Source of the DNA: a bacterium | Lineage (GTDB): Bacteria > Babelota > Babeliae > Babelales > UASB340 | Assembly: GCA_030629005.1 (NCBI GenBank) | Contig: DAOVPV010000006.1 | Span: 3,472 to 67,471, forward strand | DNA length: 64,000 nucleotides | Direction of reading: 5' to 3' | Part shown: piece by piece, positions 1 to 59,159 of the stretch | How the letters are laid out: each line of letters begins with the position of its first letter | Position numbering within the stretch: the first letter of the stretch is position 1 | Position numbers and translations under genes: made by a program | Notes under the pieces: model-generated | The model's input: the letters and a program-made list of their open reading frames with translations, nothing else | The model's database searches: none | What the model was told of the DNA's origin: nothing

Positions 1-1325
1 CATCAAAAAAGTTTTCGTTTTTGGCATTAAATGACGGGTCCTGCTTTAATAGTTTGCAAATCGTTATAGATACAAACATGCCAAAATATGAAGAAACAAT
101 ATCACTACTTTCTACAGGAGCTTCTGTAAAAATTACAGGCAAAATTGTCCAAAGCCCAGGAAAAGAACAATCTATAGAACTTATGGCTCAAGATATAACA
201 GTTATTGGTAAATGTGATCCGGAAACATACCCTTTACAAAAAAAACGACATTCTTTTGAATTCTTAAGAGAAATTGCACACCTAAGACCAAGGACTAATA
301 CTTTTGGAGCAATTGCAAGAGTAAGAAATGCTTTGTCATTTGCAACTCACCAATTCTTCCAAGAAAAAGGTTTTTTATATATTCACACTCCGATTATAAC
401 TGCCGCAGATTGTGAAGGTGCGGGTGAAATGTTTAAAGTAACAACTTTAGATTTAGAAAACCCACCTAAAACTGATAAAAACAATTCGGAAGAAACATTT
501 AATGTTACGGATTATTCAAAAGATTTTTTCGAAAAACCTACATACCTAACAGTATCTGGCCAACTTGAAGGTGAAGCTTACGCATGCGCACTTTCTAATA
601 TTTATACATTTGGACCAACATTTAGAGCTGAAAATTCTAACACTTCCAGACATTTAGCAGAATTCTGGATGATAGAGCCTGAAATGGCTTTTGCAGATCT
701 AAACGATAACATGGATTATGCAGAAGAATATATAAAATATTGTTTAAAATATCTCTTAGAAAAATGTCCTCAAGATATGAAATTTTTTAACAGATATATT
801 AAACCAGGACTTATCGATAAATTAAACAACGTAATAAATTCACCATTTGAAAGACTAGAGTATACAAAGGCAATTGAAATTCTTAAAAACTCCGGCAAAA
901 AATTTGAATATAAAATTAAATGGGGATCTGATTTACAATCCGAGCACGAAAGATACCTTACCGAAGAACATTTTAAAAAACCTGTAATTTTATATAACTA
1001 TCCAAAAGAAATAAAAGCATTTTACATGCGTCAAAATGATGATGGCAAAACAGTTGCCGCAATGGACGTGCTTGTAGAAGGTGTCGGAGAAATAATCGGT
1101 GGTTCTCAAAGGGAAGAACGTCTAAATGTTCTAGAAGAAAAAATGGACCAAACTAGATTAGATAAAGAAAATTACTGGTGGTACCTAGAGCTTAGAAAAT
1201 ATGGTTCAGTTCCTCACGCAGGATTTGGGCTAGGCTTTGAACGACTTATACAATTTGCTACAGGTATGGAAAATATTCGAGATGTTATTCCATTTCCAAG
1301 ATATCCAGGACATTGTGATTTTTAA
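1..1325 (+). CDS. asnS: asparaginyl-tRNA synthetase (5' end cut off by window edge)
   Basis: The reading frame is open to position 1. Class II aaRS motifs are present: [38 protein letters not shown]. It is colinear with E. coli AsnS as recalled. Confidence 0.95.
486..506 (+). repeat. 21-nt hairpin-core repeat, copy 1 (TCGGAAGAAACATTTAATGTT)
   Basis: Exact match to the consensus. It is in frame in asnS and read as SEETFNV. It is identical over 25 nt to the copy at 58518. Confidence 0.9.
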
Positions 1326-1357
1326 TATAATTTAATTTATAATAAAATTTCTAACTT

Positions 1358-1413
1358 AAAAAAGAACGTTTGTTTTGATTTGAAATTAAAGGTCAAAACA
1401 GTCGTTCTTTTTT
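1358..1413 (+). terminator. rho-independent terminator after asnS
   Basis: AGAACGTTTGTTTTGA pairs with TCAAAACAGTCGTTCT (14 of 16 bp) and is followed by a T-run. Confidence 0.7.
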
Positions 1414-1492
1414 AATTATTGCACTTTATCCCCAAATTATTGTAACTATCTTTTAGGAAAAAATATAAACCCTTTTTTGCGGGGGGGTACCG

Positions 1493-2635
1493 ATGACACA
1501 ATTTTCCCAAAAAATATATTGGGGATTCCTTATACTATCTTTTTCATCATGCAATTTAAAAAAAATAAACTGTATGGAACTTGTTAGGAAATTAAGTCGA
1601 GAATTCTTAACATTTGTATCATCAGATGATAACAAACATAAAACAAATCCTAAATATAAAATCCCAAACTCAAAGATTGCCAATGAATTTGTTCTATTTT
1701 TACAAGAACGATCAGGCTTAAACTTGCTAAAGGTTTTATTCACCATGAAGTCAATTGATCGCCTATTTTCAAAATACACAGCAATTGATTTATCAATGAG
1801 CAAAGACGAGATTATTGACAAAAATAAAATAGAATGGATCAAAGAAACATCAAATGAAAATACAAATCCAGAGCAATTATTTTATTTTATATTTAGCAAC
1901 CGTTTATATGAAACAACCCCAATCAATGAAAAAACAAAAGTTTTTGCCTTTATGTCTACAGAAATAAACGAAAGTATTTATCAATTAATTTTAGTACTTC
2001 TCGAAAGTCAAACGTTAAACGGAAATAATATTCTACAAATCATTAAAGTATTGAAAAAAAACATTCTTTTTTACCTAGAAATAAAATACCTATTAAAAGC
2101 CCTACAAATAAAACATTTAAAAGCTCAAGAAAAAAAACTCCAAAAGCAAATCTTGTGGTTTTATGACAAAGGCGAAATAAAAACCTGGGATATTCAAGAA
2201 TTACATAATCCACACCCAATAAAACTTGAATATTATAAAATACAAGACAAAATAACCAGGCTAAAACAATTTTTTTTAAAAAAAGATAACGTAAAAAAAT
2301 TAAATTTGATAACAAAAAAATATACAACATCCCCATCGTTTCTAGATCTCACAAAACAAGAACCTTGTCTATATTATTTACTAAATATAGAAACAAAACG
2401 AAAAATCAAACAAGCACTATCTGAAGAAAAAATAGAATGGCCTGCAGAACTTGAAGAGCTTGCACTTTATGAATATTTAATAAATTACATTGAAAAATAT
2501 ATTATGGAATTTCTAAATGTACTTACATACATATTTAATGATGAAACTTTTTTTGAATTATTAACACAAAAAATAGAGGAATGCACCTTGAACGAGAAAT
2601 CTTTAAAACAAAAATATGATGTTATTTTTATATGA
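1493..2635 (+). CDS. hypothetical protein, possible lipoprotein
   Basis: 380-aa ORF with a G-rich RBS (GGGGGGG) 5 nt before the ATG. The N-terminus IYWGFLILSFSSC looks like a signal peptide with a lipobox. The rest is K/E/I-rich and I recognise no family. Confidence 0.55.
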   Translation: MTQFSQKIYWGFLILSFSSCNLKKINCMELVRKLSREFLTFVSSDDNKHKTNPKYKIPNSKIANEFVLFLQERSGLNLLKVLFTMKSIDRLFSKYTAIDLSMSKDEIIDKNKIEWIKETSNENTNPEQLFYFIFSNRLYETTPINEKTKVFAFMSTEINESIYQLILVLLESQTLNGNNILQIIKVLKKNILFYLEIKYLLKALQIKHLKAQEKKLQKQILWFYDKGEIKTWDIQELHNPHPIKLEYYKIQDKITRLKQFFLKKDNVKKLNLITKKYTTSPSFLDLTKQEPCLYYLLNIETKRKIKQALSEEKIEWPAELEELALYEYLINYIEKYIMEFLNVLTYIFNDETFFELLTQKIEECTLNEKSLKQKYDVIFI

Positions 2636-2700
2636 AAAAAGGCATACTTCGCATTTTTCTAACAAATGTTAACTTACAATTTAGTCAATTCCTTTAAAAG

Positions 2701-2732
2701 GCTGGCCTGCCATACGTAGCCTTGGCGAAGTC
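2701..2732 (-). repeat. GC-rich tRNA-trailer repeat, short form
   Basis: GCTGGCCTGCCATACGTAGCCTTGGCGAAGTC is a version of the 2921-2976 and 14129-14193 module with an internal deletion. It abuts the tRNA-Ala 3' end. Confidence 0.7.
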
Positions 2733-2808
2733 TGGTGGAGGTAAGCGGAGTCGAACCGCTGGCCTTCCGCTTGCAAAGCGGACGCTCTACCAACTGAGCT
2801 ATACCCCC
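2733..2808 (-). tRNA. tRNA-Ala (anticodon UGC), CCA encoded
   Basis: The reverse complement GGGGGTATAGCTCAGTTGGTAGAGCGTCCGCTTTGCAAGCGGAAGGCCAGCGGTTCGACTCCGCTTACCTCCACCA folds as a cloverleaf. The G3:U70 Ala identity pair is present and the anticodon loop is TTTGCAA. Confidence 0.95.
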
Positions 2809-2833
2809 GAAAATTTCAAGTGGCCGTGCCTTT

Positions 2834-2876
2834 TGCCCTACTTCGCTTTAAAAAGCTACGAAGGGCATACTTCGCG
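2834..2876 (-). repeat. GC-rich tRNA-linked repeat module R2
   Basis: TGCCCTACTTCGCTTTAAAAAGCTACGAAGGGCATACTTCGCG has a close copy at 13833-13871. It contains two TACTTCGC boxes. Confidence 0.7.
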
Positions 2877-2920
2877 TCCTTTCTATCAATATCAGGCTTA
2901 AAACTATCTCTTTTAAAAGA

Positions 2921-3015
2921 CTGGCTTGCCATACGACCTGTCCTACGAAGCCACGTAGGGCGTAGTAGGAAGCCTTTACGCCGTCGCTAAAGCTATGGCG
3001 CACATGGGCGAAGTA
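2921..3015 (-). repeat. GC-rich tRNA-trailer repeat module R1 plus CCA-adjacent box
   Basis: CTGGCTTGCCATACGACCTGTCCTACGAAGCCACGTAGGGCGTAGTAGGAAGCCTT is about 90% identical to 14129-14185. The segment ends in GGCGAAGTA directly against the tRNA-Ile 3' end. Confidence 0.75.
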
Positions 3016-3092
3016 TGGTGGGCCTAAGTAGACTCGAACTACTGACCTCTCCGTTATCAGCGGAGTGCTCTAGCCAACTGAGCTATAGGCCC
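3016..3092 (-). tRNA. tRNA-Ile (anticodon GAU), CCA encoded
   Basis: The reverse complement GGGCCTATAGCTCAGTTGGCTAGAGCACTCCGCTGATAACGGAGAGGTCAGTAGTTCGAGTCTACTTAGGCCCACCA folds as a cloverleaf. The anticodon loop is CTGATAA. Confidence 0.95.
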
Positions 3093-3275
3093 CAAAATTT
3101 CTTAAATTATATATTTATTTTAATACTCTTGCAACATCTTATTATGAAGAAATCGTTTCCCAACATAAAAAACTTCATAATGCAGTATTAATTGACCCTA
3201 TTGTAAATAATTATATATGCTTTCACAAAAGCACGTCCAGTTCTATTTTATAGTACAAAATATTAGGGAGATATC

Positions 3276-3449
3276 ATGAATCCAAATAAAATAAACTCTG
3301 AAAATAATGAGAAAAAATTTGAGAAAAAATATGGTTTTTTTAGAAAAATAAAAAGCATGGCCAGAAACACCAAAAACTTCCTCAAAAACCACTTTCCATC
3401 CCGCACTTGGGGCAAACCTCAAGAAAAAAACAAAGGCCCTAAAATATAA
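3276..3449 (+). CDS. small basic hypothetical protein (57 aa)
   Basis: This ORF is below the length cutoff of the supplied track. An AGGGAG RBS lies 6 nt before the ATG. The product MNPNKINSENNEKKFEKKYGFFRKIKSMARNTKNFLKNHFPSRTWGKPQEKNKGPKI is lysine-rich. A GGGCC/GGCCC hairpin lies about 35 nt downstream. It competes with the antisense ORF 3243-3455. Confidence 0.3.
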   Translation: MNPNKINSENNEKKFEKKYGFFRKIKSMARNTKNFLKNHFPSRTWGKPQEKNKGPKI

Positions 3450-3590
3450 ATACAAACTTTACATATAAAAAAAACAAACATAGGGGCCGAATGGCCCTTG
3501 CTCATTTAATGCTATAATCTATAATAATTAACGAATACTCCTCGCAACAAGCTAATGAAATATCATTCAAGAATTTGATTTTTTATTATT

Positions 3591-3667
3591 ACTGGACCCT
3601 GAAACAAGTTCAGGGTGACACACGCAGAATGCAAATTTGTCATCCTAAACTCGTTTCAGGATCCAGT
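3591..3667. repeat. nested palindromic MITE-like element, copy 1
   Basis: The arms ACTGGACCCTGAAACAAGTTCAGGGTGACA and TGTCATCCTAAACTCGTTTCAGGATCCAGT are 26/30 complementary. Each arm holds its own small hairpin (CTGAA-ACAAG-TTCAG). The element is intergenic, upstream of prfB. Confidence 0.8.
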
Positions 3668-3722
3668 CCTAAATAAAACAGAAAACAACGTGAAATTAAA
3701 ACCCTAAGAGATTAATAAAATT

Positions 3723-4805: not shown

Positions 4806-4809
4806 AAAA

Positions 4810-4830
4810 TTGGAAAAAACATTTAATGTT
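4810..4830 (+). repeat. 21-nt hairpin-core repeat, copy 2 (intergenic)
   Basis: TTGGAAAAAACATTTAATGTT has 2 mismatches to the consensus. It fills the prfB-tilS spacer, and its ATG is the first in-frame start of the tilS ORF. Confidence 0.8.
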
Positions 4831-5836
4831 CATGATTTTTGATAAATTAGAAAAAGAATTAAAAAATATTATCAACTTAAGCGACAAACCCAAAATTATC
4901 CTGGGCCTTTCTGGAGGGCCAGACTCTGTATTCTTATTTTATTTTTTAAAAAAGCTAGCTCAAGAAAATAAAATACAGTTAATTTGCGCACATCTAGACC
5001 ATGAATGGCGGAAAGAATCTAAATCTGATGTAGAGTTTTGTAAAAATCTATGTAAACAACATAAAATTAAATTTATTTCTAATACAACAAATGAATTAAA
5101 TCTTAATTTAAAATTTAATGGCTCCCAAGAAGAAATCGGCAGAAAATTAAGACGTCATTTCTTTAATAAAGTTTTAAAAGAAAATAACGCAAATTATGTT
5201 GCATTAGCTCATCACCTGCAAGACCAGCAAGAAACATTCTTTTGGAGAATTATTAGAGGGACAACATTAAACGGCTTAATTGGAATGAAAAAACTACAAC
5301 CTCCCTACATTCGGTCTTTATTAGATATAGAAAAAAAAGAAATCTTAAATTATTTAAATAAAAATAATATTACGTATTTAATAGACCAAACGAACGACTC
5401 TGATAAATATTTACGCAATAGGATTAGAAAATATGTAATCCCAAGCTTAGAAAAAGTCGACCCTAGATTTTCTAAGAAATTTGCTACAACTTTAAATTAT
5501 CTACAAGAAGAAGAAGCTTTTATTAAAAAAATCACAGAAAATAGTTTTAATAATCTTTTTAAAAAATCTGAAGAAACATTTAATGTTATAGAACAAAAGA
5601 ATTGTTCAGAAAATAAGTTTATCGGAAATCTCAAAGAATTTTTATCTTTAGATACCGTGTTACAAAAAAGAATTATTATTTATTGGTTGACAAAAGAAAA
5701 GGTAAAATTCAGCCCCAGCAATAATTTCTTACTAGAAATTTTACGATTTCTAAAAAATGAAAATGGCGGAGTTCACAAAATAGACAATAACTTCTCTATT
5801 TATAAAAAACAGAATAAATTCAAAATCACAGCTTAA
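4826..5836 (+). CDS. tilS: tRNA(Ile)-lysidine synthase
   Basis: The PP-loop SGGPDS and HLDHEWR are present, and the tilS-like C-terminal region follows. The start is ambiguous between ATG 4826, which lies inside the repeat, and ATG 4832. Confidence 0.9.
   Translation: MFMIFDKLEKELKNIINLSDKPKIILGLSGGPDSVFLFYFLKKLAQENKIQLICAHLDHEWRKESKSDVEFCKNLCKQHKIKFISNTTNELNLNLKFNGSQEEIGRKLRRHFFNKVLKENNANYVALAHHLQDQQETFFWRIIRGTTLNGLIGMKKLQPPYIRSLLDIEKKEILNYLNKNNITYLIDQTNDSDKYLRNRIRKYVIPSLEKVDPRFSKKFATTLNYLQEEEAFIKKITENSFNNLFKKSEETFNVIEQKNCSENKFIGNLKEFLSLDTVLQKRIIIYWLTKEKVKFSPSNNFLLEILRFLKNENGGVHKIDNNFSIYKKQNKFKITA
5567..5587 (+). repeat. 21-nt hairpin-core repeat, copy 3
   Basis: TCTGAAGAAACATTTAATGTT has 1 mismatch. 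It is in frame in tilS and read as SEETFNV. Confidence 0.9.
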
Positions 5837-5944
5837 CGCTATTATATAGACAAAAACTTAAATAATTTATTTACTTACTCAAAAAAAGTAAAATATATAA
5901 ATATATATAATGTATATTTGGTGGGGATTTTTATTGGGTAAGTA

Positions 5945-7027: not shown

Positions 7028-7087
7028 TATTACCTTTACAAAACTACCGATAATTATTACATTTTAGGCAAAAACAAAAGAGGCGAA

Positions 7088-8518
7088 GTGGCAGAAGTAG
7101 TAATTGTTGGTGCAGGACTAACAGGATTAACTGCAGCATATCATCTAGAAAAAAATAATTTTTACGATTTTAAGATTTTCGAAAAAGAAAATACACCTGG
7201 TGGACTTCTACGCTCTTTTACCAAAGATGGATTTACTTTTGATTTTACAGGCCACCTTTTACACATAAGCAACCCAGATTTTTATAATTTTTTAGACGAA
7301 ACTGCTGGCATCCAAAATTTTCTAGTTCAAAATAGAAGTTCTTTTATACATACAAATAATACATTCACAGACTATCCTTTTCAGACAAACCTTTATGGCC
7401 TTCCTGAAAAAATAATTTATGACGTAATCCTTGGATTTATAAATAGACAAAAAAATACTAGAAATCCAAAAAACTTTCATGAATGGGTACTAAAACATTT
7501 TGGTTCCGGTATCGGCAAACACTTTTTATTTCCATATAATCAAAAACTTTTAGCCTACAATATAAAACAAATAGAACACTCATGGACTGGAAGATTTGTA
7601 CCTTCTACAAACTTAAAAAATATAATTTATGGAGCATTAAATAAAAAAAATGCAAAAACAAACCTAGGTTATAATAGCAAATTTTATTATCCAAAATTCG
7701 GCGGCATACAGTATTTAATAGATAAATTACAAAATAAAATAAAAGCTAAAATAAATACCAACTTTAAACTATTCAAAATCGATCTAAAAAATAAACTTGT
7801 TCTTTTTGAAAATGGTCATATAGAAAAATTTAAACATCTTATTTCAACAATGCCACTAAATAATTTACTTAAATGCTCAATAGATAGGACAAATACAAAT
7901 TTACAAAAACAACACACAAATCTTTTATGTAATTCTGTAATAAACTTTAACTTGGGCTTTAATGCCAAAAATTTCGATACAAATTTTAAAAACAAACACT
8001 GGATATATTTTCCAGAAAAAAAATATCTTTTTTATAGACTAGGATTTTGGAATAACATATGCAAAAACTTAGCGCCAAACAATACATATTCAACATATGG
8101 TGAAGTTTCTTTTATGCCACAAACATCGAAAGAAACATTTAATGTTAAAGATCATAAACAAATAGAAAAATTAACAGAAAACTCAATTAATCAAACTATC
8201 AAATATTTAAATATTAATAAAAAAGACATATTAATAAAAAAAACATTAATACTTAAACATGCATATGTAATTTACAATACTTGGAGAAAAAAATATTTAA
8301 ATACTATTCACAAAGAATTAAAAATGGAAGGAATAAATTCTATCGGAAGATTTGGAGAATGGAAATATTCTAGCATGCAAGAAGCATTTATAGATGGAAA
8401 AAATACAGCTATTAAAATATTACATAATATGAAACAAGTAAGTCCCAAAAATTTTAGCCCCAAAAAAATAGAAGGCCTTATTAAACATGAACAAGCTACA
8501 AAACGTTTACAACAATAA
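7088..8518 (+). CDS. FAD-dependent oxidoreductase (amine oxidase / UDP-galactopyranose mutase-like fold)
   Basis: The ORF has a GTG start. A Rossmann dinucleotide motif VVIVGAGLTGLTAAYHL is followed by GGLLRSF..GFTFDFTGH. It lies next to a sugar-nucleotide epimerase gene. Confidence 0.7.
   Translation: MAEVVIVGAGLTGLTAAYHLEKNNFYDFKIFEKENTPGGLLRSFTKDGFTFDFTGHLLHISNPDFYNFLDETAGIQNFLVQNRSSFIHTNNTFTDYPFQTNLYGLPEKIIYDVILGFINRQKNTRNPKNFHEWVLKHFGSGIGKHFLFPYNQKLLAYNIKQIEHSWTGRFVPSTNLKNIIYGALNKKNAKTNLGYNSKFYYPKFGGIQYLIDKLQNKIKAKINTNFKLFKIDLKNKLVLFENGHIEKFKHLISTMPLNNLLKCSIDRTNTNLQKQHTNLLCNSVINFNLGFNAKNFDTNFKNKHWIYFPEKKYLFYRLGFWNNICKNLAPNNTYSTYGEVSFMPQTSKETFNVKDHKQIEKLTENSINQTIKYLNINKKDILIKKTLILKHAYVIYNTWRKKYLNTIHKELKMEGINSIGRFGEWKYSSMQEAFIDGKNTAIKILHNMKQVSPKNFSPKKIEGLIKHEQATKRLQQ
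8126..8146 (+). repeat. 21-nt hairpin-core repeat, copy 4
   Basis: TCGAAAGAAACATTTAATGTT has 1 mismatch. It is in frame and read as SKETFNV. Confidence 0.9.
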
Positions 8519-9398: not shown

Positions 9399-9470
9399 AC
9401 CGTTATAATCTTAGTAAATCTTAGTCTGCGGGACTAAAGAAATTTATATGAATATTCAGAGGATAAAAAC

Positions 9471-10601
9471 ATGACAAAAAAAGATTATTACGAGATTTTG
9501 GGCGTATCAAAAGGTGCATCTAAAGACGAAATTAAAAAATCATACAGAAAAATAGCTTTAAAATACCATCCTGACAAAAACCCAGACAATAAGGAAGCAG
9601 AAAATAAATTTAAAGAAGCATCAGAAGCCTACGAAGTTTTATCCAACGAACAAAAAAGAACAAAATACGATCAATTCGGCCACTCTGGCATGCAAGGCGG
9701 CTCAGACTTCCATGAATATGCAGATTTTGGAGATATTTTTTCAAATTTTGGAGATATCTTCTCGGATCTTTTTGGAGCAGGACAAGCCAGACAAACAAGA
9801 AGTAAATCCGGCATAACACCTCAAAGGGGACATGATCTTTCTTTTAACGTAGAAATTTCATTAAAAGAATCTTATCTCGGTGTAAAAAAAGGTATTTATA
9901 TATCTCACTACGTAAGTTGTACTACATGCAATAATTCTGGCTGTACGGCGGGTACAAAACCCGAAAGGTGTATATCATGCCACGGAACCGGTGCAGTAAA
10001 TTACAGACAAGGTTTCTTTTCATTTTCTCAACCATGTAACAAGTGTGGGGGCCAAGGCTTTATAATAAAGACTCCATGTCCAAAATGTAAGGGGCAATCT
10101 CGAACACGAACAAGAGAGACTATAACCGTAAATATACCCGCTGGAGTTTATAACAACGCAGAACTTAGAGTAAAATCAAAAGGTGATGCAGGCGTTTATG
10201 GCGGAAGCTCTGGAGATCTTTACATAAACTTAAGCGTAAAACCTAATAAAATATTTTGGAGAAAAAATAACAATCTTGTAACAAATCTAAATTTAACATA
10301 TCCACAACTAGTTCTTGGTTGCCAAGTAGATATCGAAAATATCGATAGCCAAACTCATACAATAAAAATTCATAAGGGTTGCCAAATAGATGAAGATGTC
10401 GTTCTTCCAGGAAAAGGCTTTGCAATACCAGGTAGCTTAGCTCGAGGAAATTTAATTGTTATTACAAAATGCCATATACCAAAAAAATTACCATCAAAAG
10501 CAAAAGAACTTTTATTAGAGTATGCAGACAAAATAGGTAACAATGTCGAAAGCAACTCTGAATCGGGAATATCAGGTTTTTTTAAAAAATTTTTAGGATA
10601 A
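9471..10601 (+). CDS. dnaJ: molecular chaperone DnaJ
   Basis: A J domain with HPD is followed by a G/F region and four CxxCxGxG zinc-finger repeats. No dnaK or grpE is adjacent. Confidence 0.95.
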
Positions 10602-10702
10602 ATTAAATTTATATTATTTTTTTTGTTTTAAAAAATAATATATTTGTTAAAATCTTTTAACATGTAAAGTTTTTAGTTGTGGTTATTTTGAAAGGAATTT
10701 GT

Positions 10703-13936: not shown

Positions 13937-14024
13937 TGGTGCCGAGGGCCGGACTCGAACCGGCACAGGTTTAAAACCCGAGGGATTTTAAGTCCCTTGC
14001 GTCTACCAATTCCGCCACCCCGGC
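13937..14024 (-). tRNA. tRNA-Leu (anticodon UAA), long variable arm, CCA encoded
   Basis: The reverse complement is GCCGGGGTGGCGGAATTGGTAGACGCAAGGGACTTAAAATCCCTCGGG...GGTTCGAGTCCGGCCCTCGGCACCA. The anticodon loop is CTTAAAA. Confidence 0.95.
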
Positions 14025-14128
14025 ATATAATAACCGTTATAATTATGTACAATTTTTAAATATTAGCAACATTTTTTTGTTTTATTTTTTAGAAAAAAAA
14101 TTTTAGTGAATATTTTAAATTGAAGAAA

Positions 14129-14193
14129 TGGCCGTGCCATACGACTTGTCCTACGAAGCCACGTGGGGCGTAGTAGGAAGCCTTGGCGAAGTA
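14129..14193 (-). repeat. GC-rich tRNA-trailer repeat module R1 plus CCA-adjacent box
   Basis: The sequence is TGGCCGTGCCATACGACTTGTCCTACGAAGCCACGTGGGGCGTAGTAGGAAGCCTTGGCGAAGTA. It has an internal imperfect hairpin around the palindrome CCACGTGG. It abuts the tRNA-Cys 3' end. Confidence 0.75.
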
Positions 14194-14267
14194 TGGAGGC
14201 GGCACCCGGAATTGAACCGGGGATAGCGGTTTTGCAGACCGCGGCCTTACCACTTGGCTATGCCGCC
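14194..14267 (-). tRNA. tRNA-Cys (anticodon GCA), CCA encoded
   Basis: The reverse complement is GGCGGCATAGCCAAGTGGTAAGGCCGCGGTCTGCAAAACCGCTATCCCCGGTTCAATTCCGGGTGCCGCCTCCA. The U73 discriminator typical of tRNA-Cys is present. The 5' end lies 6 nt after the miaB stop codon. Confidence 0.95.
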
Positions 14268-18429: not shown

Positions 18430-20328
18430 TTAAAAATTTAATTCTTCCCAAAGAGCTAAATTTTTATTTAGCTCTTTTTCAAGTTTATTTAAAATATATA
18501 AAGTTTGATCGTAATCCTTTGAACCATACTCTAAGCTTTCAAACTTTTTAGTTAAAAGCTCTAACTCAACTTCTTGTTTTGATATTTTAGTCTCTAAGCG
18601 CCTAATAAGTTTTCTTTTTTCATAATCGTTTTCTTTGAGTTTTGTTTTATGACAAATATCCTTAGCTTTAGATTCTATAATTTCTGCATCTTGCAAAACT
18701 TCTTTCTGCGCATTTTTTTGAACCAAAAAAGAATCGTAATTACCTTTATACTTATAAGCTGAATCTTCTTTTAGTTCTATAATAGAAGTTGCAAGATTAT
18801 TTAAAAAATCTCTATCGTGAGAAACAAATAAAACAGTTCCATCATATTTTTTAAGAACATTTAACAAAACATCTTTAGATTCTATATCAAGGTGATTTGT
18901 AGGCTCATCTAATAATAAAAAATTTGCATTTTGTAGCAAAACTTTTATCATTGCAACACGATTTTTTTCACCACCACTCAAAACACTTACTCTTTTGTCA
19001 ACATCATCACCACTAAAAAGAAATGCTCCGAGAAGCCCACGAACTCTCTGTCTTTGCTCCGATGTTTTGCAAGCAGATTCTACCTCTTTAATTAAATCAT
19101 TTTTTAAATTTAAAGATTTATTTTGATCTTGTTCAAAAAAAGCAGTTTTTACATTATGACCAAGCTCAAAAGAACCTGCATTACTTTTCAATTTATTCAT
19201 AATAATGTTGAGCACCGTTGATTTACCCTGGCCATTGGGTGCTACAATAGCAACCATTTCACCACGCTCAATTTCAAACGAAATATCTTTAAATATTTTT
19301 TTATCAGCAAAACTTTTTGATAATTTTTTCACAGTTAAAACAATTTTTCCGGTTCGCACTACTTTAGGTAAGCTAAAACGCATTATCTGTGATTTAGGTT
19401 CTAGCTTTACCATCTCTATTTTGTCTAAAGCCTTTAGCCTACTTTGAACCATTTTCGCTTTTGTAGCGGACGCCCTAAATCTATCGATTAACTCTCGTTC
19501 TTTTTTTAAAAACTTTTGTTGTTCCACAAATTTCTTTTCCAAAAGTTCTTGATTATGTTTTTTCTGTTCTAGATATTTAGAATAATTACCTGTAAAAATA
19601 TTTATATGACCTAAGCTTACCTCATAAATTTGATTACAAAGTTTATCTAAAAAATATCTATCGTGGCAAACCAACATAAAACCAAAGCCGGAAGAAGCAT
19701 TTAATGTTTGGGATCTTTTTAAAAAATCCAAAAACCAATCTTTTGCAACCAAATCCAAATGGTTTGTAGGTTCATCAAATAAATAAAAGTCAGCTTTTTG
19801 TAATAAAAGTTTTGCCAAAACCAACCGCATTTTCCAACCAACAGAAAGAGTTTGTACAGGATCTGTAAATTGTTGTTCGCGAAACCCAAGCCCCAATAAA
19901 ATATTTTTTGCTTCTGTTATTTTTTTTTCAAATTCTAATTCTTGCAAATTGATTTGTAACAAAGAATATCTCTCTAAATCTTCTACACTGCTATCATCTA
20001 ATTTTTTTTCTAAAGAATTATACTCTTCTACTAAATCACCTAAATTACCTAACATTATTTTATAGATATTAAGAGCTTCTCTAAAAATAGTCTTCTCTGA
20101 TAGAAGGATTACGTTTTGTGGTAAATATGCAACCTTTTTGTCGCCCTGGATATTAATTTGACCAGAGTCATACTCCTGTTGCCCTGCAATAATTTTTAGC
20201 AATGTCGTTTTTCCAGAGCCATTTCTACCAACAAGACCAATTCTTTGATTTGAATTAACTGTAAAAGAAATATTATCAAAAATGGCACATTGCCCAAAAT
20301 TTAAGCTTAAATTTTTTACTATAAACAT
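18430..20328 (-). CDS. ABC-F family ATPase (Uup/YheS/EttA-like)
   Basis: Two ABC cassettes are present: GRNGSGKTT with LSVGWKMR, and APNGQGKST with LSGGEKNR. There are no TM domains, and the C-terminus is a coiled coil. Confidence 0.9.
   Translation of the reverse strand: MFIVKNLSLNFGQCAIFDNISFTVNSNQRIGLVGRNGSGKTTLLKIIAGQQEYDSGQINIQGDKKVAYLPQNVILLSEKTIFREALNIYKIMLGNLGDLVEEYNSLEKKLDDSSVEDLERYSLLQINLQELEFEKKITEAKNILLGLGFREQQFTDPVQTLSVGWKMRLVLAKLLLQKADFYLFDEPTNHLDLVAKDWFLDFLKRSQTLNASSGFGFMLVCHDRYFLDKLCNQIYEVSLGHINIFTGNYSKYLEQKKHNQELLEKKFVEQQKFLKKERELIDRFRASATKAKMVQSRLKALDKIEMVKLEPKSQIMRFSLPKVVRTGKIVLTVKKLSKSFADKKIFKDISFEIERGEMVAIVAPNGQGKSTVLNIIMNKLKSNAGSFELGHNVKTAFFEQDQNKSLNLKNDLIKEVESACKTSEQRQRVRGLLGAFLFSGDDVDKRVSVLSGGEKNRVAMIKVLLQNANFLLLDEPTNHLDIESKDVLLNVLKKYDGTVLFVSHDRDFLNNLATSIIELKEDSAYKYKGNYDSFLVQKNAQKEVLQDAEIIESKAKDICHKTKLKENDYEKRKLIRRLETKISKQEVELELLTKKFESLEYGSKDYDQTLYILNKLEKELNKNLALWEELNF
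19688..19708 (+). repeat. 21-nt hairpin-core repeat, copy 5
   Basis: CCGGAAGAAGCATTTAATGTT has 2 mismatches. It lies in + polarity inside a - strand gene, where it is read as TLNASSG. Confidence 0.85.
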
Positions 20329-20613: not shown

Positions 20614-21816
20614 ATGCCAGAAAACAAAATCGGATTAAAAACAGCTGTTGTAATTGGTATCAATGCAATGATCGGCTCCGGAATTTTAACAATTCCAACA
20701 ATGCTTTCTAATGCTGCCGGCCCCGCTGGAATAATAAGTATGATATTAGGAATAATATTGGTTTTGAGCATTGCATTATCTTTTGGAAGATTAACAAAGT
20801 ACTATTCTGCAACAGGATGGAGTTATAATTATCCATCAAAATGGGCAGGACATAAAACAGGAATTCTTTCAGCATTCTTTTACTTGTTCGGAATAATTGT
20901 TGGAATGGGATTTGTTGTACAACAATCTGGTATCTGGGTCAACAAAATCTTTCCAAGTGTAAACCCAAGTATTCTTGGAATTATTGTAATTTTTATTTTA
21001 ACACTGCTTGTTTTAGCAGGAGCAAAAACTTCTTCCTGGGCACAATATTTAATAGTACTTTTTGTTCTAATTCCATTAATTGCGACATCTATTTTTTGTT
21101 GGTCAAATTTTGATATACATCTTACAACACCGTTTATGCCAAATGGTCTTAGCTCCGTATTTAACTCTTTAACAATTGCTTTATTTGCAATGTTTGGATT
21201 TGAAAGCATTGCTTCACTTTATCCTATTGTAGAAAATCCAGAAAAAAATGTTTCTAAGGCCTTTATCTATTCAATCGCAATAGTTGGTCTAGCATATATA
21301 TTGTTTTCTTACGGGGTATTATTTTCTATCCCATCAGAACATTTTGCACAAGGATTAAGCGAACCGATCTCTTCTGTTTTAGCAAGATACTTTCCACAAG
21401 CAAAATATCTATATCTTTTTATTTTTGTTAGCGCTCTAGCCGGAATTATTGGAACAATCCACTCCATGTTATGGTCAGTAAGCGAACTTTTTACAGATGT
21501 TTTAAAACTAACAAAATTAAAATTTATACAAAAATTAATTAAAAAAAATATTTGGAACTTTAAAGTTGCGGTCATTATTACAGCACTATTAATGACAATT
21601 GCAGCAATTTTTGTTGAAGGTTTCTTTTTAGTTTCTATGACCTCTTTGTTTATTGTTTCTTCATATATTTTATCCATAATGCTTCTATTATTTGAAAAAG
21701 CTGAATGGAAATCTAGACATAATTACATAACACTCATTGGACTTTTCGGTGGAGGAATTTTAATATATTTTGCTTTTAAAAGTTCATTAAACACTCTTTT
21801 AAACTTAATTATGTAA
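20614..21816 (+). CDS. APC-superfamily amino acid permease
   Basis: 400 aa with about 11-12 TM helices. The N-terminal motif AVVIGINAMIGSGIL is typical of amino acid/polyamine permeases. Confidence 0.8.
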   Translation: MPENKIGLKTAVVIGINAMIGSGILTIPTMLSNAAGPAGIISMILGIILVLSIALSFGRLTKYYSATGWSYNYPSKWAGHKTGILSAFFYLFGIIVGMGFVVQQSGIWVNKIFPSVNPSILGIIVIFILTLLVLAGAKTSSWAQYLIVLFVLIPLIATSIFCWSNFDIHLTTPFMPNGLSSVFNSLTIALFAMFGFESIASLYPIVENPEKNVSKAFIYSIAIVGLAYILFSYGVLFSIPSEHFAQGLSEPISSVLARYFPQAKYLYLFIFVSALAGIIGTIHSMLWSVSELFTDVLKLTKLKFIQKLIKKNIWNFKVAVIITALLMTIAAIFVEGFFLVSMTSLFIVSSYILSIMLLLFEKAEWKSRHNYITLIGLFGGGILIYFAFKSSLNTLLNLIM

Positions 21817-21825
21817 GAAATAATT

Positions 21826-22596
21826 TTACTTCGATTTTTCAGCCAAATCTAAATAAAGGTCTAACGATTTATCTACTACATTAAAAATAATTTGATAATA
21901 ATCTGAATAATCACCAGACATTTCTGCTTTAGAAATAGACCTTATATAAGCAAGCTTATCCTCAACTTTTATTATTGCAGGAGGAAATCCAGACTGCATT
22001 AAAATCAAATCCATAAGTAGTCTTGCGCTTCGACCATTTCCATCAACAAAAGGGTGGATCATAACCAATTTTATGTGAGCATCAGCTGCAATTTTAACAG
22101 GATGTTCTTTTGTACAATGCAACCATTTAATAAAATCATCCATCAATTCTGGTACTTTTATAGGCTCTGGTAGCACAGAATCGGAACCCGCTATTTTTAC
22201 TGCTATTTTTCGCAATTTACCTGCATTTTTATCATCTATTTGTTTTAAAATTAAATAGTGAAAATTTAAAAAATCTTTTAAATTTATATCTTGAATTTTT
22301 TTACCTACAAATTTTTTTATATAATCAATAGCAAAAGCTAGATTTTTAGCTTCCAAATGCTCACGAATACTCTTGCCTCCAATAGTAATTCCTTTTTCAA
22401 CAACAAGTGTAGTTTCTTGTTTCGTTAAAGTATTACCCTCAATGGCGTTCGAATTATAAGTTGATTCTATCTTAAACCAATCATCCAAATTCTTTACAAG
22501 CTCTTTTGATAAAGGCCTAAGACTATCTAATTTATTTTTTTTATTATCAATAATTTCTAATAGTTTACCCATGGTATTACCTCGTTTATTCGTCAC
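21826..22596 (-). CDS. Fic-domain protein (AMPylase family)
   Basis: The Fic motif HPFVDGNGRSARLL is present. An N-terminal SNAIEG matches the intramolecular inhibitory motif (S/T)xxxE(G/N). Confidence 0.9.
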   Translation of the reverse strand: MTNKRGNTMGKLLEIIDNKKNKLDSLRPLSKELVKNLDDWFKIESTYNSNAIEGNTLTKQETTLVVEKGITIGGKSIREHLEAKNLAFAIDYIKKFVGKKIQDINLKDFLNFHYLILKQIDDKNAGKLRKIAVKIAGSDSVLPEPIKVPELMDDFIKWLHCTKEHPVKIAADAHIKLVMIHPFVDGNGRSARLLMDLILMQSGFPPAIIKVEDKLAYIRSISKAEMSGDYSDYYQIIFNVVDKSLDLYLDLAEKSK

Positions 22597-22619
22597 AACT
22601 TACATAAATTTATTTAATA

Positions 22620-22699
22620 ACTGGATACTGAAACAAGTTCAGCATGACAATTGAAATACCAAGTCCTCTTGTCATTCTGAACTTGTTTCAGAATCTAGT
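22620..22699. repeat. nested palindromic MITE-like element, copy 2
   Basis: The arms are AACTGGATACTGAAACAAGTTCAGCATGACA and TGTCATTCTGAACTTGTTTCAGAATCTAGT. It is intergenic between the NurA-like and Fic genes. Confidence 0.8.
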
Positions 22700-22721: not shown

Positions 22722-23909
22722 TTAAACGCCAATACCACGTTTTTTAATACTCTTTTGCGAAAAAAATAATCTTTTATTTTGCTCAAAAGCTTCCCGCTGT
22801 AATAAACTATAAAAAAATTCACGGTCTGGACCCTTTACAACTGCAGCTTCATGCGCATAAGCCAAAGTTACAGGATAACCTAAACCCTTTTTTATTTGGT
22901 CTAAAGCAACCGCGGACAAAAAATCTAACATATCTTTATCTTGCGCAATATAGGCGAAAGTTTCTATACGCACAACTTCTACATCTGCATTTAAATAAAA
23001 AAAACATGGCTTTAGATGTTCTGGATAACTCTTTGTAATTTTTGAATTACTAAAAAAAATATTACTACGTTCATTTATATTTAAATAAGTTTTTGCTATT
23101 CGTGTATCTATTAAATTATCTACAGCCTTACATGGAAAATCACTATAAACTCTGTGACAAGAAATACATTCTGCAAAATCAAACCGACATAAACCTAGCT
23201 TTATTAAATTTACAAGCTCTTTGCTTTTAGGAAAACTTATAAAACCAGCTATTATTTTTTTATTCTCATAAAATTTTTGCAAAATATTTAAGTATGAATT
23301 CAAGAACAAATCTTTAATTTCTTCTGGTTTAGATTCTAAAAACCAAAAAATTACCGTACCATCTACAAACGCAATATCTATATTTTCTTCTAAAGTTAAT
23401 TTTAGCAAATTTAATAATTCAAGTTCCTCTCTCTTTAAATCTACAATATCATTAGAAAAATTTATCTTATTATTTTGATCTAAAAAATCTTGAATTATAA
23501 AAAGAGTTGGCTCTGAATTTATTTTTACAGAACTATTTTCGTCGGAAGAAACATTTAATCTTGAAGAAACATTTAATATTTTTGAATATTTTATCTGACA
23601 ACTACCAATATTTATTAAAAAACAACCTGAATTAGAAATATTTCGGTCTGGATATATCTGAGAACCATCTACAGATAGTATAGAATAATCATTTTTTTGA
23701 ATTGGAATTTTAAATTTATCAGACAAATTACCAGCCCACGATGGAACCAAAAAACTTGCGTTAGAATTTTCTACTTTAGCTTTAAATTTAGAATCTACAG
23801 AAATACTTTGCCATTTTTCCTGAGCTATACTTGACTGCTCTGTAAAATTATTAAAAAGCTTATCTGCATTTTTTTTTAGTTGTAAAAAAAGACTATTTTT
23901 ATTTAACAT
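22722..23909 (-). CDS. NurA-domain nuclease-like protein
   Basis: ILSVDGSQIYPD, FVDGTVIFW and the C-terminal GYPVTLAYAHEAAVV resemble the NurA nuclease family pattern from memory. No HerA-like partner is adjacent. Confidence 0.45.
   Translation of the reverse strand: MLNKNSLFLQLKKNADKLFNNFTEQSSIAQEKWQSISVDSKFKAKVENSNASFLVPSWAGNLSDKFKIPIQKNDYSILSVDGSQIYPDRNISNSGCFLINIGSCQIKYSKILNVSSRLNVSSDENSSVKINSEPTLFIIQDFLDQNNKINFSNDIVDLKREELELLNLLKLTLEENIDIAFVDGTVIFWFLESKPEEIKDLFLNSYLNILQKFYENKKIIAGFISFPKSKELVNLIKLGLCRFDFAECISCHRVYSDFPCKAVDNLIDTRIAKTYLNINERSNIFFSNSKITKSYPEHLKPCFFYLNADVEVVRIETFAYIAQDKDMLDFLSAVALDQIKKGLGYPVTLAYAHEAAVVKGPDREFFYSLLQREAFEQNKRLFFSQKSIKKRGIGV
23542..23580 (+). repeat. 21-nt hairpin-core repeat, copies 7 and 8 (tandem, 18-nt period)
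   Basis: The sequence is TCGGAAGAAACATTTAATCTT followed by GAAGAAACATTTAATATT. In the - strand gene it is read as ILNVSS-RLNVSS. Confidence 0.85.
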
Positions 23910-24047: not shown

Positions 24048-24857
24048 TTAAAAATCTTTACCAAAAGATAAATCTGCTAATTCTTGATAAAGCTCTTCAT
24101 CTTCTTTTAATTTCTCAGGCAATTCCATCTTTTCCTCTTTTTCTACATCATCAGATTCTTCATCATCTGGCAAATCCAAAATCATTTTTTCATCATCAAT
24201 AATCTTCTCTTCATCTTTTGGCTCTTCTGCAATAACTTCTTCTATTATTTCAACTTCAGGCTCTTCAACATCTTCTGTTATTTCAACTTCAGGTTCTTCA
24301 ATCTCTTGCTCTTCAATCTCTTGCTCTTCAAACTCCTGCTCTTCAACCTCTTGCTCTTCAAACTCCTGAGCTACAGGCTCAACAACAATCTTTTCTTCTA
24401 TTATTTCAACTTCAGGTTCTTCAACTTTTTCTATAACTTCTTCGACAACCGGCTCTGCAACCTCTTGCTCTTCAACCCCTTGCTCTTCAACCGTTGATTC
24501 AAAAACACTTGGCTCTTCAACATCTTCTGTTACAACTTCAGCTACGGGCTCAACAACAATCTTTTCTTCTATTATTTCAACTTCAGGTTCTTCAACATCT
24601 TCTGTTACAACTTCAGCAACAGGCTCTACAACCTCTTGCTCTTCAACCTCAGGTTCTTCAACTTTTTCTATAACCTCTGTTACAACCTCAGCAACAGGCT
24701 CAGCTTTAATCTCTTCTTCAACAGCCGGCTCAACTACCGACGCCGTTAATTCCGAATCCGAAAATTCGGAACCTAAATCAAAACCGGCTTCTGAATTTAT
24801 AAAAGCTATAAATAATATTTGCACTATTATTAATAATAGATAAATTCTTTTATTCAT
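24048..24857 (-). CDS. secreted, extremely acidic E/V-rich repeat protein
   Basis: A signal peptide MNKRIYLLLIIVQILFIAFINSEAG is followed by repeated EPEVEIIEEKIVVEPVAEVVTEDVEEP units. Identical 50-nt blocks occur at 24376-24425 and 24547-24596, spaced 171 nt (57 codons) apart. Confidence 0.75.
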   Translation of the reverse strand: MNKRIYLLLIIVQILFIAFINSEAGFDLGSEFSDSELTASVVEPAVEEEIKAEPVAEVVTEVIEKVEEPEVEEQEVVEPVAEVVTEDVEEPEVEIIEEKIVVEPVAEVVTEDVEEPSVFESTVEEQGVEEQEVAEPVVEEVIEKVEEPEVEIIEEKIVVEPVAQEFEEQEVEEQEFEEQEIEEQEIEEPEVEITEDVEEPEVEIIEEVIAEEPKDEEKIIDDEKMILDLPDDEESDDVEKEEKMELPEKLKEDEELYQELADLSFGKDF

Positions 24858-28158: not shown

Positions 28159-28183
28159 AGCAAGAATCCTTATTTTTTTATAA

Positions 28184-28294
28184 GGACTAGATCCCGCATC
28201 AAGTGCGGGATGACAACAAGAGCCTCGCTTAAATCTTATTCAAAGACCTTTTATTAACTTCGAACAATAATAGATCCAATCCAGAATCTAGTCC
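28184..28294. repeat. nested palindromic MITE-like element, copy 3 (degenerate right arm)
   Basis: The left arm is GGACTAGATCCCGCATCAAGTGCGGGATGACA, with the hairpin CCCGCA-TCAAG-TGCGGG. The termini GGACTAGAT / ATCTAGTCC form a 9-bp inverted repeat. It is intergenic between sufU and pepA. Confidence 0.7.
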
Positions 28295-50563: not shown

Positions 50564-50770
50564 ATAAAATCCCTTTTACAAATATTGCACGAATTATGAA
50601 CAATATCCATATGTTTTAAAAATTTCAAAAAAATCGAATGATCCTCGATTTTCAACAGCAAATTCAATTAATATTAAGATTATTGAATTATACCAAATTA
50701 ATTTTTTATAATGCATCTGTAAACATTAGGGAAAATTTAGGGAAAATAAAAAATATATGGGGAGGGACCA

Positions 50771-53119: not shown

Positions 53120-53136
53120 ACTCCAATCAACACAAT

Positions 53137-53172
53137 AAAAAAGAGCCTGCAACAAACCGCAGGCTCTTTTTT
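53137..53172. terminator. bidirectional rho-independent terminator
   Basis: AAAAAAGAGCCTGC-AACAAACC-GCAGGCTCTTTTTT lies between convergent lon and the phospholipase gene. Confidence 0.85.
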
Positions 53173-53192
53173 AAGACCTAATTTATTAATGC

Positions 53193-56900: not shown

Positions 56901-57062
56901 CCTCAGTAAACTAAATAAATAAAATCACATAAAAATAAATCTAGCCCATATCTTTAAAAGAACACAAAGTCTTTTAAAAAAAATTTGAATACTTGCATTT
57001 AAAGACAATTGTAATTTAAAATTTTTAGACAAAAAAAGTTTTGATAATTGGGGAAATACAAA

Positions 57063-58181
57063 ATGAAAAAAGTTTTAACAATTGGTGGATCAACCAAAGA
57101 TATATACCTTAGCAACCAAGGCGTTGACTATATGTCCATAACTCAAAAAAACTGTAATATAAAATATATGTTATTAAAGTCTGGAGATAAAATCGAAGTC
57201 GAAAACATTCTTTATTTTTCTGGCGGAGGAGCCACAAACTCTGCTGCATCATTTAAACGACTGGGATTTGATACGAGCTGTATTTCAAAAATAGGAAATG
57301 ATGAATCTGGAAAATTTGTAATTAATGAACTTGAAAAAGAAAATATAAATATCCAAAATATTATTAAATCTGAAGACAAAAACACAGGCACATCCTTTGT
57401 AATAAATACACTAGAGCGAGAACGAACTATATTTGCCTATAGAGGAGCCAACGGATATTTAGAAAAAAAAGACATCCCTTTTAATATCATTAAAAATACA
57501 GATCAAATCTATATAACATCACTAAGTCATGAATCATCTAAAGTTCTACCAGATATAGTTAAATTTACACATGAAAACAACATTCCCGTAGCAATAAATC
57601 CAGGAACAAGTCAACTCTCACATGGATCTCAAACTCTAAAAGAATCATTAAAATATATCGATACTATAATTATGAATAGTGATGAAGCCAAAACATTTAT
57701 GATAGCTCTTATAGAAAACGACAAAAACTATAAAGAGACACTTAAAAGCTCACGACAAAATAAATTGAACAGCGAATCAACAGAAAACAAACCTACCTTA
57801 CTAGACTCTCCACTCAGACACATGGACTATTATTTTAGCATATGGAAGTTTTTTAAAGAAGTTATGCACATGGGACCAAAAACCGTTGTCATTACAGATG
57901 GCGCAAACGGCGTCTATGTTGCAAATAATAAACAAATTTTTTATCACCCTAGCATTAAAACAGATGTTGTAGATACGCTCGGAGCTGGAGACTCATTTGG
58001 ATCATGCTTTGTTGCAAGCATTCTAGCAGAATACTCAACAGAGGAAGCTCTAATTAGAGGAATTATAAACAGCTCATCTGTTATTAGTAAATTTGGAGCA
58101 AAACCAGGTCTTTTAACAAAAGAAGAGTTAGATAAAAAGAAAATAGATTTTAGTCTTCTTCAAAAATTTAAACTAAACTAA
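57063..58181 (+). CDS. PfkB-family carbohydrate kinase
   Basis: GGGATNSA, NSDEA and DTLGAGDSFGSCF are present. I placed the start at the ATG after a GGGGA RBS. The ORF is open back to a TTG at 57048. It has an internal low-complexity insertion of about 50 aa. Confidence 0.85.
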   Translation: MKKVLTIGGSTKDIYLSNQGVDYMSITQKNCNIKYMLLKSGDKIEVENILYFSGGGATNSAASFKRLGFDTSCISKIGNDESGKFVINELEKENINIQNIIKSEDKNTGTSFVINTLERERTIFAYRGANGYLEKKDIPFNIIKNTDQIYITSLSHESSKVLPDIVKFTHENNIPVAINPGTSQLSHGSQTLKESLKYIDTIIMNSDEAKTFMIALIENDKNYKETLKSSRQNKLNSESTENKPTLLDSPLRHMDYYFSIWKFFKEVMHMGPKTVVITDGANGVYVANNKQIFYHPSIKTDVVDTLGAGDSFGSCFVASILAEYSTEEALIRGIINSSSVISKFGAKPGLLTKEELDKKKIDFSLLQKFKLN

Positions 58182-58199
58182 CTTTTAGGGAGAATATTC

Positions 58200-59159
58200 T
58201 TGCACAAAAAAATAGTTTTTATAGAAATAAATCAAAACAAAATATCTCTTGCAAATTTAATAGAATCAAAAGATAAATATACTCTTACAGATAAAGAAAC
58301 AACTAACCTAGATAAACTAACTTTTTTTGACAACAAACTATTTAATAACTCAAACCTTTTACAAATAATTCAAGAATATCTTAGTAAGAATAATATAAAA
58401 AAGGGTCGCAGTATTTTATCCGTTCCAAGCAACGTTTCAGAAATTACAATCCTCCAAATAGCCTTGTGCCTAAGTAAAACATGCCTTAAAATAGAAAAAA
58501 TAATATCATTAAATAATTCGGAAGAAACATTTAATGTTATTGAAAATTTTATATTAAAAAAAGATCTCCGAAAAACTACAAACCATTGGCAAGTATTTTT
58601 ACCACCAAAAAATCAAAATCCTAAAAAATGGATCGCTATTTCTTTAAGTATACTGATAATAGAATTTTCACTCTTAACAACAACAAGCATCAAAAAACAC
58701 ATTAACCATAAAAACCTTAAAAAACAAAATCTTTCGCTTAAACAAAAGGTAAAAGGTTTAAAATCAGAACTAAATAAAAATAACAATACCTCAAAAAGCA
58801 ACACCATGTTACAAAAAAAAATAAATAAGCTTTACGCAAAACAAAATCAACAATTCCTAAATAGCTTGTTGGACATTGCCAATCACCTACCACCAAATGC
58901 AAAATTAAACAAAATAAAGCTAATGAGTCAAAACAAAGAAATAGAAGAGAATAAGCAAACTTCTAATAAAAAAAATAAAGCAGCAATTTCATTAGAAGGC
59001 AAAAGTAAACACCAACAAAATCTTATTAACTTTGTAAAAAAATTAAATAACTCTAAAGTTTTTTCTAAAGCCTCATTAAAGAATATCAACAGAATAAAAG
59101 AGAAAATCTCCCATAAAATCTACAATTTTAATATCCATGCCAAACTAAACCCTCTATAA
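58200..59159 (+). CDS. hypothetical bitopic membrane protein (possible PilN-like assembly protein)
   Basis: A TTG start follows an AGGGAG RBS. A central TM helix (WIAISLSILIIEFSLLTTTSI) is followed by a K/N-rich coiled coil. The PilN-like call is tentative. Confidence 0.55.
   Translation: MHKKIVFIEINQNKISLANLIESKDKYTLTDKETTNLDKLTFFDNKLFNNSNLLQIIQEYLSKNNIKKGRSILSVPSNVSEITILQIALCLSKTCLKIEKIISLNNSEETFNVIENFILKKDLRKTTNHWQVFLPPKNQNPKKWIAISLSILIIEFSLLTTTSIKKHINHKNLKKQNLSLKQKVKGLKSELNKNNNTSKSNTMLQKKINKLYAKQNQQFLNSLLDIANHLPPNAKLNKIKLMSQNKEIEENKQTSNKKNKAAISLEGKSKHQQNLINFVKKLNNSKVFSKASLKNINRIKEKISHKIYNFNIHAKLNPL
58518..58538 (+). repeat. 21-nt hairpin-core repeat, copy 6
   Basis: Exact match to the consensus. 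It is in frame and read as SEETFNV. It is identical over 25 nt to copy 1. Confidence 0.9.

Follow-up and report, generated by a model that had tools for sequence, protein, structure and literature searches.

Rickettsia palindromic elements (RPEs) are insertions of around 150 bp that lie in frame within genes and are tolerated there (PMC10969869). In IS200/IS605 elements, the left end is inserted 3' of a target of 4-5 nucleotides (nt), the lagging-strand template serves as substrate and orientation is biased genome-wide (PMC5027513). Repetitive extragenic palindromic sequences (REPs) are described as units of 20-40 nt with GTAG or CGTC tags, located outside genes and mobilised in trans by the HUH enzyme RAYT (PMC3733652). 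Here we analyze a repeat that can be compared with these three systems: a 21-nt element with the consensus 5'-TCGGAAGAAACATTTAATGTT-3', which recurs in a stretch of 64,000 nt of a bacterial genome (contig DAOVPV010000006.1, positions 3,472 to 67,471, hereafter the window), mostly in frame within unrelated genes and always in the same orientation.

The window belongs to a scaffold of 96,050 nt (ENA ERZ23498683, ZHAN22-2_SAMN18200505_METAG-scaffold_62), of which 88.9 kb were reached by stepwise extension, the last 9.3 kb serving as test DNA for predictions made earlier. The best protein matches of the window genes are from Candidatus Dependentiae (TM6) / Babeliales, with 80% identity between the AsnRS and that of TM6 bacterium GW2011_GWF2_28_16, and the G+C content is around 30%. 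Allowing up to three mismatches, the consensus matched seven sites in the window, against 0.02 expected from 100 dinucleotide shuffles, so that the recurrence does go beyond a composition effect, as stated in the preliminary description of this DNA. When 79.6 kb were scanned on both strands with a position-weight matrix, every real copy scored at least 30 bits and nothing else reached 12 bits, with 0.6 hits in the shuffles. The extended scaffold holds 10 loci with 11 units in total, at a density of one 21-mer per ~9 kb. Eight of these loci are within genes and two are intergenic, the coding density being 88.5%; six host genes are in sense and two are antisense to the motif. No similarity was found past the unit boundaries, save for a 25-nt identity (AATTCGGAAGAAACATTTAATGTTA) between two copies.

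All seven copies already reported for the window were found, with 0-2 mismatches, and all are on the + strand. Two of them show no mismatches and are read as SEETFNV in + strand genes: the copy at 486..506 in asnS (flank ACG GAT) and that at 58518..58538 (flank ATT GAA), whose host had been called a membrane protein gene and is more precisely pilN (PF05137). These two copies share the 25-nt identity mentioned above; its existence had been noted previously, with the sixth copy given as a partner instead of this one, the seventh listed. The copy at 4810..4830 (two mismatches, flank CAT GAT) is located in the prfB-tilS spacer as described, but it overlaps an ATG (4826) from which tilS could also start; alignment with the relative places the start at 4832. 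In tilS itself (+ strand), a copy with one mismatch at 5567..5587 (flank ATA GAA) is again read as SEETFNV, and at 8126..8146 a copy with one mismatch (G4->A, flank AAA GAT) gives SKETFNV in a + strand gene of the FAD/amine-oxidase family. The other two window copies are antisense to - strand genes. One, at 19688..19708 (two mismatches, flank TGG GAT), is read as TLNASSG in an ABC-F gene; the other, at 23542..23580 (flank TTT GAA), is in a NurA-domain gene (PF09376) and consists of a 21-nt unit with one mismatch plus an 18-nt tandem, read together as (K)ILNVSSRLNVSS. The second tandem unit (23563-23580) matches the 18-nt core with one mismatch, in agreement with the earlier observation. Three new copies, also on the + strand, were obtained by extension: an intergenic one at window-equivalent 77160 (5679-5699 of the retrieved piece), 30 nt upstream of a gene start; one at window-equivalent 80044 (2795-2815 of the retrieved piece), within a 609-aa gene that reads it in frame as SNETFNV; and a last one at window-equivalent 80657 (2182-2202 of the retrieved piece), at the extreme end of the 609-aa gene and in the TAA-containing frame, where the element's own TAA is the stop codon (…GRNI*).

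Comparison with orthologous genes indicates that the family is inserted DNA and not conserved protein. The AsnRS of the window has 468 aa and those of its relatives 461; in 11/11 orthologues the alignment leaves one clean gap, of 7 columns and placed exactly at SEETFNV, and the identical 7-residue gap is obtained with the solved structure PDB 6pqh. For the ABC-F protein, a 7-column gap was present in 24 of 24 orthologues, inside the near-invariant segment DWFLDFLK-NS-FGFMLVCHD. Relative to a syntenic genome, NurA has 13 additional aa at the block, and these 39 nt equal 21+18, which fits the tandem; in that relative TilS is 13 aa and the FAD oxidoreductase 9 aa shorter, the block being among the missing residues in both cases, and the prfB-tilS spacer has 2 nt versus 26 nt here. 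The PilN site is within a linker of variable length and could be compared only with distant homologues (39% identity at most). In an AlphaFold model of the ABC-F protein, with a predicted local distance difference test (pLDDT) score of 84, the block occupies a loop (206-215) that connects helix 193-205 with strand 216-220 and in which the pLDDT of residues 209-212 is below 50; a location in a low-confidence loop of the model is consistent with a tolerated passenger peptide. A model of AsnRS based on a 12-sequence alignment was poor (pLDDT 55) and was set aside.

An in-frame inserted DNA element in unrelated genes was what the preliminary description had proposed, and orthologues carrying the same residues, which would argue for conserved protein sequence instead, were looked for; the reverse was seen, i.e. 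exact-length gaps in the orthologues examined. The presence of the same peptide in five + strand genes could suggest a conserved or convergent SEETFNV module under selection at the protein level. This explanation can be taken as refuted: every orthologue lacks the peptide, and the DNA that encodes it gives TLNVSS in - strand genes, is intergenic twice and acts once as a stop codon, with flanks that carry a signature at the DNA level (see below). The fact that genes on the two strands read one motif in different frames, together with the intergenic copies, points to a DNA element.

Two further features were observed around NurA in these comparisons. Between the ABC-F and NurA genes, the window contains amino-acid permease and Fic-domain genes (20614-22596); in the syntenic relative NurA adjoins ABC-F directly, without these two genes, indicating local gene gain or loss. 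This relative, the sister genome (ENA ERZ27254744 k141_861558), has in its NurA gene an in-frame insertion of its own, of ~108 nt (36 aa; ~9440-9560 of the retrieved piece), which is missing from the NurA gene of the window. This insertion has a G+C content of ~47% versus ~27% for the genome, contains the short palindromes GCAGCAAGCTGCTGC and CGAACGCCCCGTTCG and was found in one copy only among the loci of the sister genome searched; it has the appearance of an RPE-like element, in a second lineage of Dependentiae.

Directly 3' of the copies there is a target signature, NNN-GA-W, on the + strand, located at 507..512 for the asnS copy and at 4831-4836, 5588-5593, 8147-8152, 19709-19714, 23581-23586 and 58539-58544 for the other window copies. 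Considering all loci, G is found at position +4 past the element in nine out of ten (background G 12%, p 4.7e-8), A at +5 also in nine, and GAW after a 3-nt variable spacer in eight, the left flank being only mildly A-rich. In asnS, the downstream GAT is a near-invariant native Asp codon (the relative reads AAT AAT / GTC GAT, with the slash at the junction), and in the ABC-F gene GA(W) is the complement of a conserved Ser codon. Since GA(W) is native in both sets of orthologues, it corresponds to a pre-existing target and not to part of the insert. A strict GAW rule, which held at 7/7 window loci, was followed at only one of the three new loci, two of which have G at +4, and it was lowered to a strong preference. 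No target-site duplication was detected, the left end of the element being conserved and the right flank varied (only GA is shared), and the 21-nt element has no terminal inverted repeats.

The reading frames recorded previously stood, being S-(E/K)-E-T-F-N-V in + strand genes and (T/I/R)-L-N-(V/A)-S-S in - strand genes of the window. Also as described, the second open frame goes unused in the window; outside it, the copy at 80657 takes the TAA-containing frame. Of the GAW sites in + strand genes, 71% are in frame; once the stop-creating phase is left out, 86% of the usable sites give the observed frame, and in - strand genes 86% of the usable sites give the observed TLNVSS frame. The constant frame thus has two sources: GA(W) is for the most part an Asp/Glu codon in frame (or complementary to xxW-TCx), and stop-creating insertions are lost. 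The unused open frame needs no explanation at the peptide level. Usable targets are distributed as 49.5% in + strand genes, 13.7% in intergenic DNA and 36.8% in - strand genes, compared with 4, 1 and 2 window copies, respectively, so that the enrichment of copies in + strand genes is accounted for by the target split. Because the length is 3x7 nt and two of the three frames per orientation are free of stops, most hits in genes just add a 7-residue loop; these being mostly harmless, the share of copies that lie in genes is close to the coding density. The SEETFNV peptide is a passenger.

A regularity missed in the preliminary description is that all 10 loci have the element on the + strand, whatever the direction of the host gene. 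Targets for the opposite orientation are commoner (2664 WTC vs 2002 GAW), yet none of the ten copies is in that orientation (p ~2e-4). GC skew at third codon positions of the + strand is -0.36 in + strand genes and -0.48 in - strand genes, with -0.19 in intergenic DNA. The + strand is therefore C-rich irrespective of gene direction and, as the C-rich strand is the lagging-strand sequence by the usual skew rule, it would be lagging-strand sequence throughout the window, its complement being the lagging-strand template. To judge from this skew, polarity follows replication and not transcription. The 9.3 kb used as test DNA agreed with the expectation, with three out of three new copies on the + strand. 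Some clustering of copies was detected (p 0.04), a consequence of the higher density of GA targets in blocks of + strand genes.

Co-orientation of all copies with replication, as in Ter, KOPS and Chi, might also be expected of a selected polar motif, whose palindromic core would bind a dimeric protein (with a role in DNA uptake, in the arrest of forks or in organising or segregating the chromosome), whose orientation would be maintained by selection and which would have been spread by recombination. The constancy of the CATTTAATGTT half, unaltered in 9/10 loci, and the presence of type IV pilus genes (PilN, T2SSE ATPase) could be in line with this possibility, which we nevertheless regard as quite improbable. 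The copies are exact 21-nt insertions in loops of essential genes, not substitutions; the syntenic DNA of the sister genome is devoid of the motif; the distribution tracks the GA target and the coding density, without regular spacing; uptake sequences are non-polar and about ten times denser, and KOPS and Chi have only 5-8 nt. Point differences between copies are mostly GC->AT, at six G/C positions, and look like neutral decay. A stronger constraint on the palindromic half was also considered and is unproven, given that five of the six G/C positions are in the first 11 and the changes are mostly GC->AT. One variant, G4->A, is common to three copies; it could represent a subfamily or a recurrent mutation, and may be a hint of copies made from copies.

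The motif shares the 8-mer TCGGAAGA with what we take to be the sequence of Illumina adapters, and all the data come from one sample, so an assembly or sequencing artefact, for example of adapter origin, was considered. It is effectively refuted and retains hardly any credibility. Independent Logan assemblies of run SRR13892594 contain identical copies at 486, 4810, 5567, 58518, 77160, 80044 and 80657, so that two assemblies give exactly the same bases at seven of the ten loci. Furthermore, the copies vary by point changes and by one tandem unit, the reading frame is kept in all coding copies, both flanks run on into orthologous sequence and the copies obey the target rule. Over window positions 57875-64652, seven single-base differences separate the ENA scaffold from a Logan contig of this run, none of them inside the repeat, indicating strain-level variation in the population. 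A second Logan contig departs from the ENA scaffold over the last ~165 nt (window-equivalent 80987-81151).

With respect to its distribution, the family appears to be lineage-specific on the basis of the sequences searched. In the sister genome, the first ~20 kb contain no analogous repeat family, nor was there any copy of the motif pattern in its searched syntenic loci. A scan of a genome collection with the 17-mer AAGAAACATTTAATGTT gave at least 108 single matches, all of them unrelated among the matches listed. In metagenomes, a scan with the 18-mer followed by NNNGAW returned 19 single hits, corresponding to ordinary coding EETFNV sequence, and no multi-copy contig. The hits in a viral collection come from a phage protein that is internally repetitive (NIDVEETFNVPFKS) and has long conserved flanks, and were discarded as unrelated. 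The preliminary description knew of no described 21-nt equivalent, and none was found in the literature either, where no 21-nt strand-polar in-frame insertion family is described in Dependentiae or elsewhere.

Taken together, the exact insertion, the lack of duplication and of inverted ends, the one-sided target and the polarity with respect to the replication strand match the single-strand transposition of IS200/IS605. We tentatively favour, with a confidence slightly short of even, a family of strand-specific 21-nt insertion elements, probably moved as single-stranded DNA (ssDNA) at the replication fork. The element would be mobilised in trans by 'peel and paste', like IS200/IS605 and REP/RAYT (HUH/Y1). 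On the G-rich strand, i.e. the lagging-strand template, it would read 5'-WTC NNN / AACAT-TAA-ATGTT TCTTCCGA /-3', also written WTC-NNN/AACATTAAATGTT-TCTTCCGA/ (slashes mark its ends), with the target on the 5' side as the model requires; WTC-NNN precedes the element in eight of the ten loci on this strand, and the complement of the +4 G does so in nine, with a 3-nt offset. The 5' end of the element on the G-rich strand would thus join 3' of a short target, its 3' end (TTC CGA/) would repeat the TTC-N3 cleavage context of that target, and the small internal palindrome, the sole internal feature, could be gripped by a dimeric enzyme. Somewhat more tentatively, this might be the smallest mobile DNA unit recognised to date, one reduced to 21 nt of recognition features, handled in trans by an ssDNA enzyme, inserted into one replication strand only and placed next to GA; its length and its frames free of stops would have been shaped for the colonisation of essential genes as an innocuous loop of 7 residues. 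If so, ~100 copies or more are predicted for the complete genome, with polarity flipping at the origin and terminus.

The same single polarity at 10/10 loci would also be produced by templated patch synthesis, in which a polymerase or reverse transcriptase recopies a short RNA or ssDNA template, in a retron- or telomerase-like manner, at a 3' end or nick, on one replication strand and with the help of microhomology. The 89 kb contain no transposase, the additional 18-nt unit of one locus is arranged head to tail as iterative copying of a template would give, the copies vary mainly towards the 5' end of the unit, and the junctions are in short A-rich and GA contexts. On the other hand, no reverse transcriptase or retron-like gene was found in the 89 kb, AT-biased decay at G/C positions explains the 5' variation equally well, and the lone tandem could have arisen by ordinary slippage. 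We know of no bacterial precedent for internal chromosomal insertions of this kind, and we consider patch synthesis unlikely.

Several observations weigh against insertion elements moved as ssDNA. In the open reading frames (ORFs) of the 89 kb, neither Pfam scans nor precomputed hits revealed a transposase of the Y1/HUH type, a RAYT, a reverse transcriptase or a recombinase domain of any other sort. No polymorphism for empty sites was detected, and GA(W) is lacking at two of the ten loci. All counts come from one scaffold (~89 kb reached) of one metagenome genome. We know of no element as short as 21 nt that transposes. The hairpin core proposed in the preliminary description exists as a 5-bp inverted repeat, AACAT-TTA-ATGTT (AACATTTAATGTT), but when folded as DNA on both strands it gives only -1.7 to -2.0 kcal/mol (z ~-0.8), within the shuffle range, and the palindrome is broken in three of the eight window units with no compensation or covariation; we therefore rejected the hairpin as structural evidence. 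The IS200/IS605 elements have two subterminal hairpins with longer stems, instead of one weak palindrome, and their target abuts the left end, which here shows a 3-nt offset from a target that is not absolute. REP stems are also longer than the 5 bp of the 21-nt element. Upstream of the window, at 1385-3268 of the adjoining contig, there are four adjacent ORFs of 136, 131, 131 and 115 aa, without Pfam match; they were considered as IS200-like transposases for their similar size, and this candidate was dropped for lack of Pfam support.

Other repeats were noticed in the window. Rfam and ARAGORN identified four tRNAs only, none of them overlapping the 21-mer. A 65-nt G+C-rich direct repeat, 86% identical between its two copies, is located at 2912-2976, between tRNA-Ala (2733-2808) and tRNA-Ile (3016-3092), and at 14120-14184, between tRNA-Leu (13937-14024) and tRNA-Cys (14194-14267). 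Three alike intergenic hairpins (3580-3620, 22609-22649 and 28175-28215; e.g. CCCTGAAACAAGTTCAGGG followed by TGACA) are probably shared terminator-like elements. At 24048-24857, a 269-aa ORF with no Pfam match encodes an acidic low-complexity product and is made up of 15-nt periodic repeats (CTCTTGCTCTTCAAC-like, on the + strand).

If the proposed mobility were confirmed, the lower size limit of a transposable unit would fall to ~20 nt, and in-frame colonisation of essential genes would have evolved independently of Rickettsia, in another obligate intracellular phylum and by a route tied to the replication strand. The element would also represent a minimal natural substrate for studies of ssDNA insertion and, for uncultured genomes, an intrinsic marker of the direction of replication. 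For annotation, a note of caution is that an indel of 7 residues in a conserved protein of genomes of this type can represent selfish DNA, not adaptation.

Among described systems, RPEs had been pointed out in the preliminary description as the closest analogue. The likeness extends to a repeat of an obligate intracellular bacterium, in frame in unrelated and often essential genes, giving rise to a tolerated peptide and missing from orthologues (PMC10969869). It does not extend to size or structure: RPEs have ~100-150 bp, long palindromes and several families, unlike the 21 nt and the 5-bp inverted repeat found here, and the host phylum is Dependentiae in this case. To our knowledge, neither strict strand polarity nor a one-sided target motif has been reported for RPEs.

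Polarity also connects the 21-nt family with Ter, KOPS and Chi, short motifs repeated along the chromosome and co-oriented with replication, and DNA uptake sequences likewise lie in coding DNA in preferred frames. All of these arise by substitution and are kept by selection or uptake bias, and we know of none, be it Ter, KOPS, Chi or an uptake motif, that is an exact insertion in conserved genes. Uptake sequences, in addition, are found about equally in both orientations at ~1 per kb, in contrast to 0/10 opposite copies and one insertion per ~9 kb here.

With IS200/IS605, the 21-nt family shares the absence of terminal inverted repeats and target duplication, a short one-sided target (here not absolute), orientation with respect to the lagging-strand template and an internal palindrome (PMC5027513), although those elements have hundreds of bases or more and are accompanied by tnpA, and there is no Y1_Tnp hit in the 89 kb analyzed here. 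REP/RAYT systems, as described in PMC3733652, are alike in size class (20-40 nt), in having one small palindrome and a conserved tag at one end and in their high copy number; REPs differ in their GTAG/CGTC tags, extragenic location, stable hairpins and frequent arrangement in inverted pairs, compared with a TCGG tag, 8/10 loci in genes, a weak hairpin and units that are never inverted. In view of these comparisons, the 21-nt family could be placed among small non-autonomous insertion elements, with a substantial chance of being more distinct.

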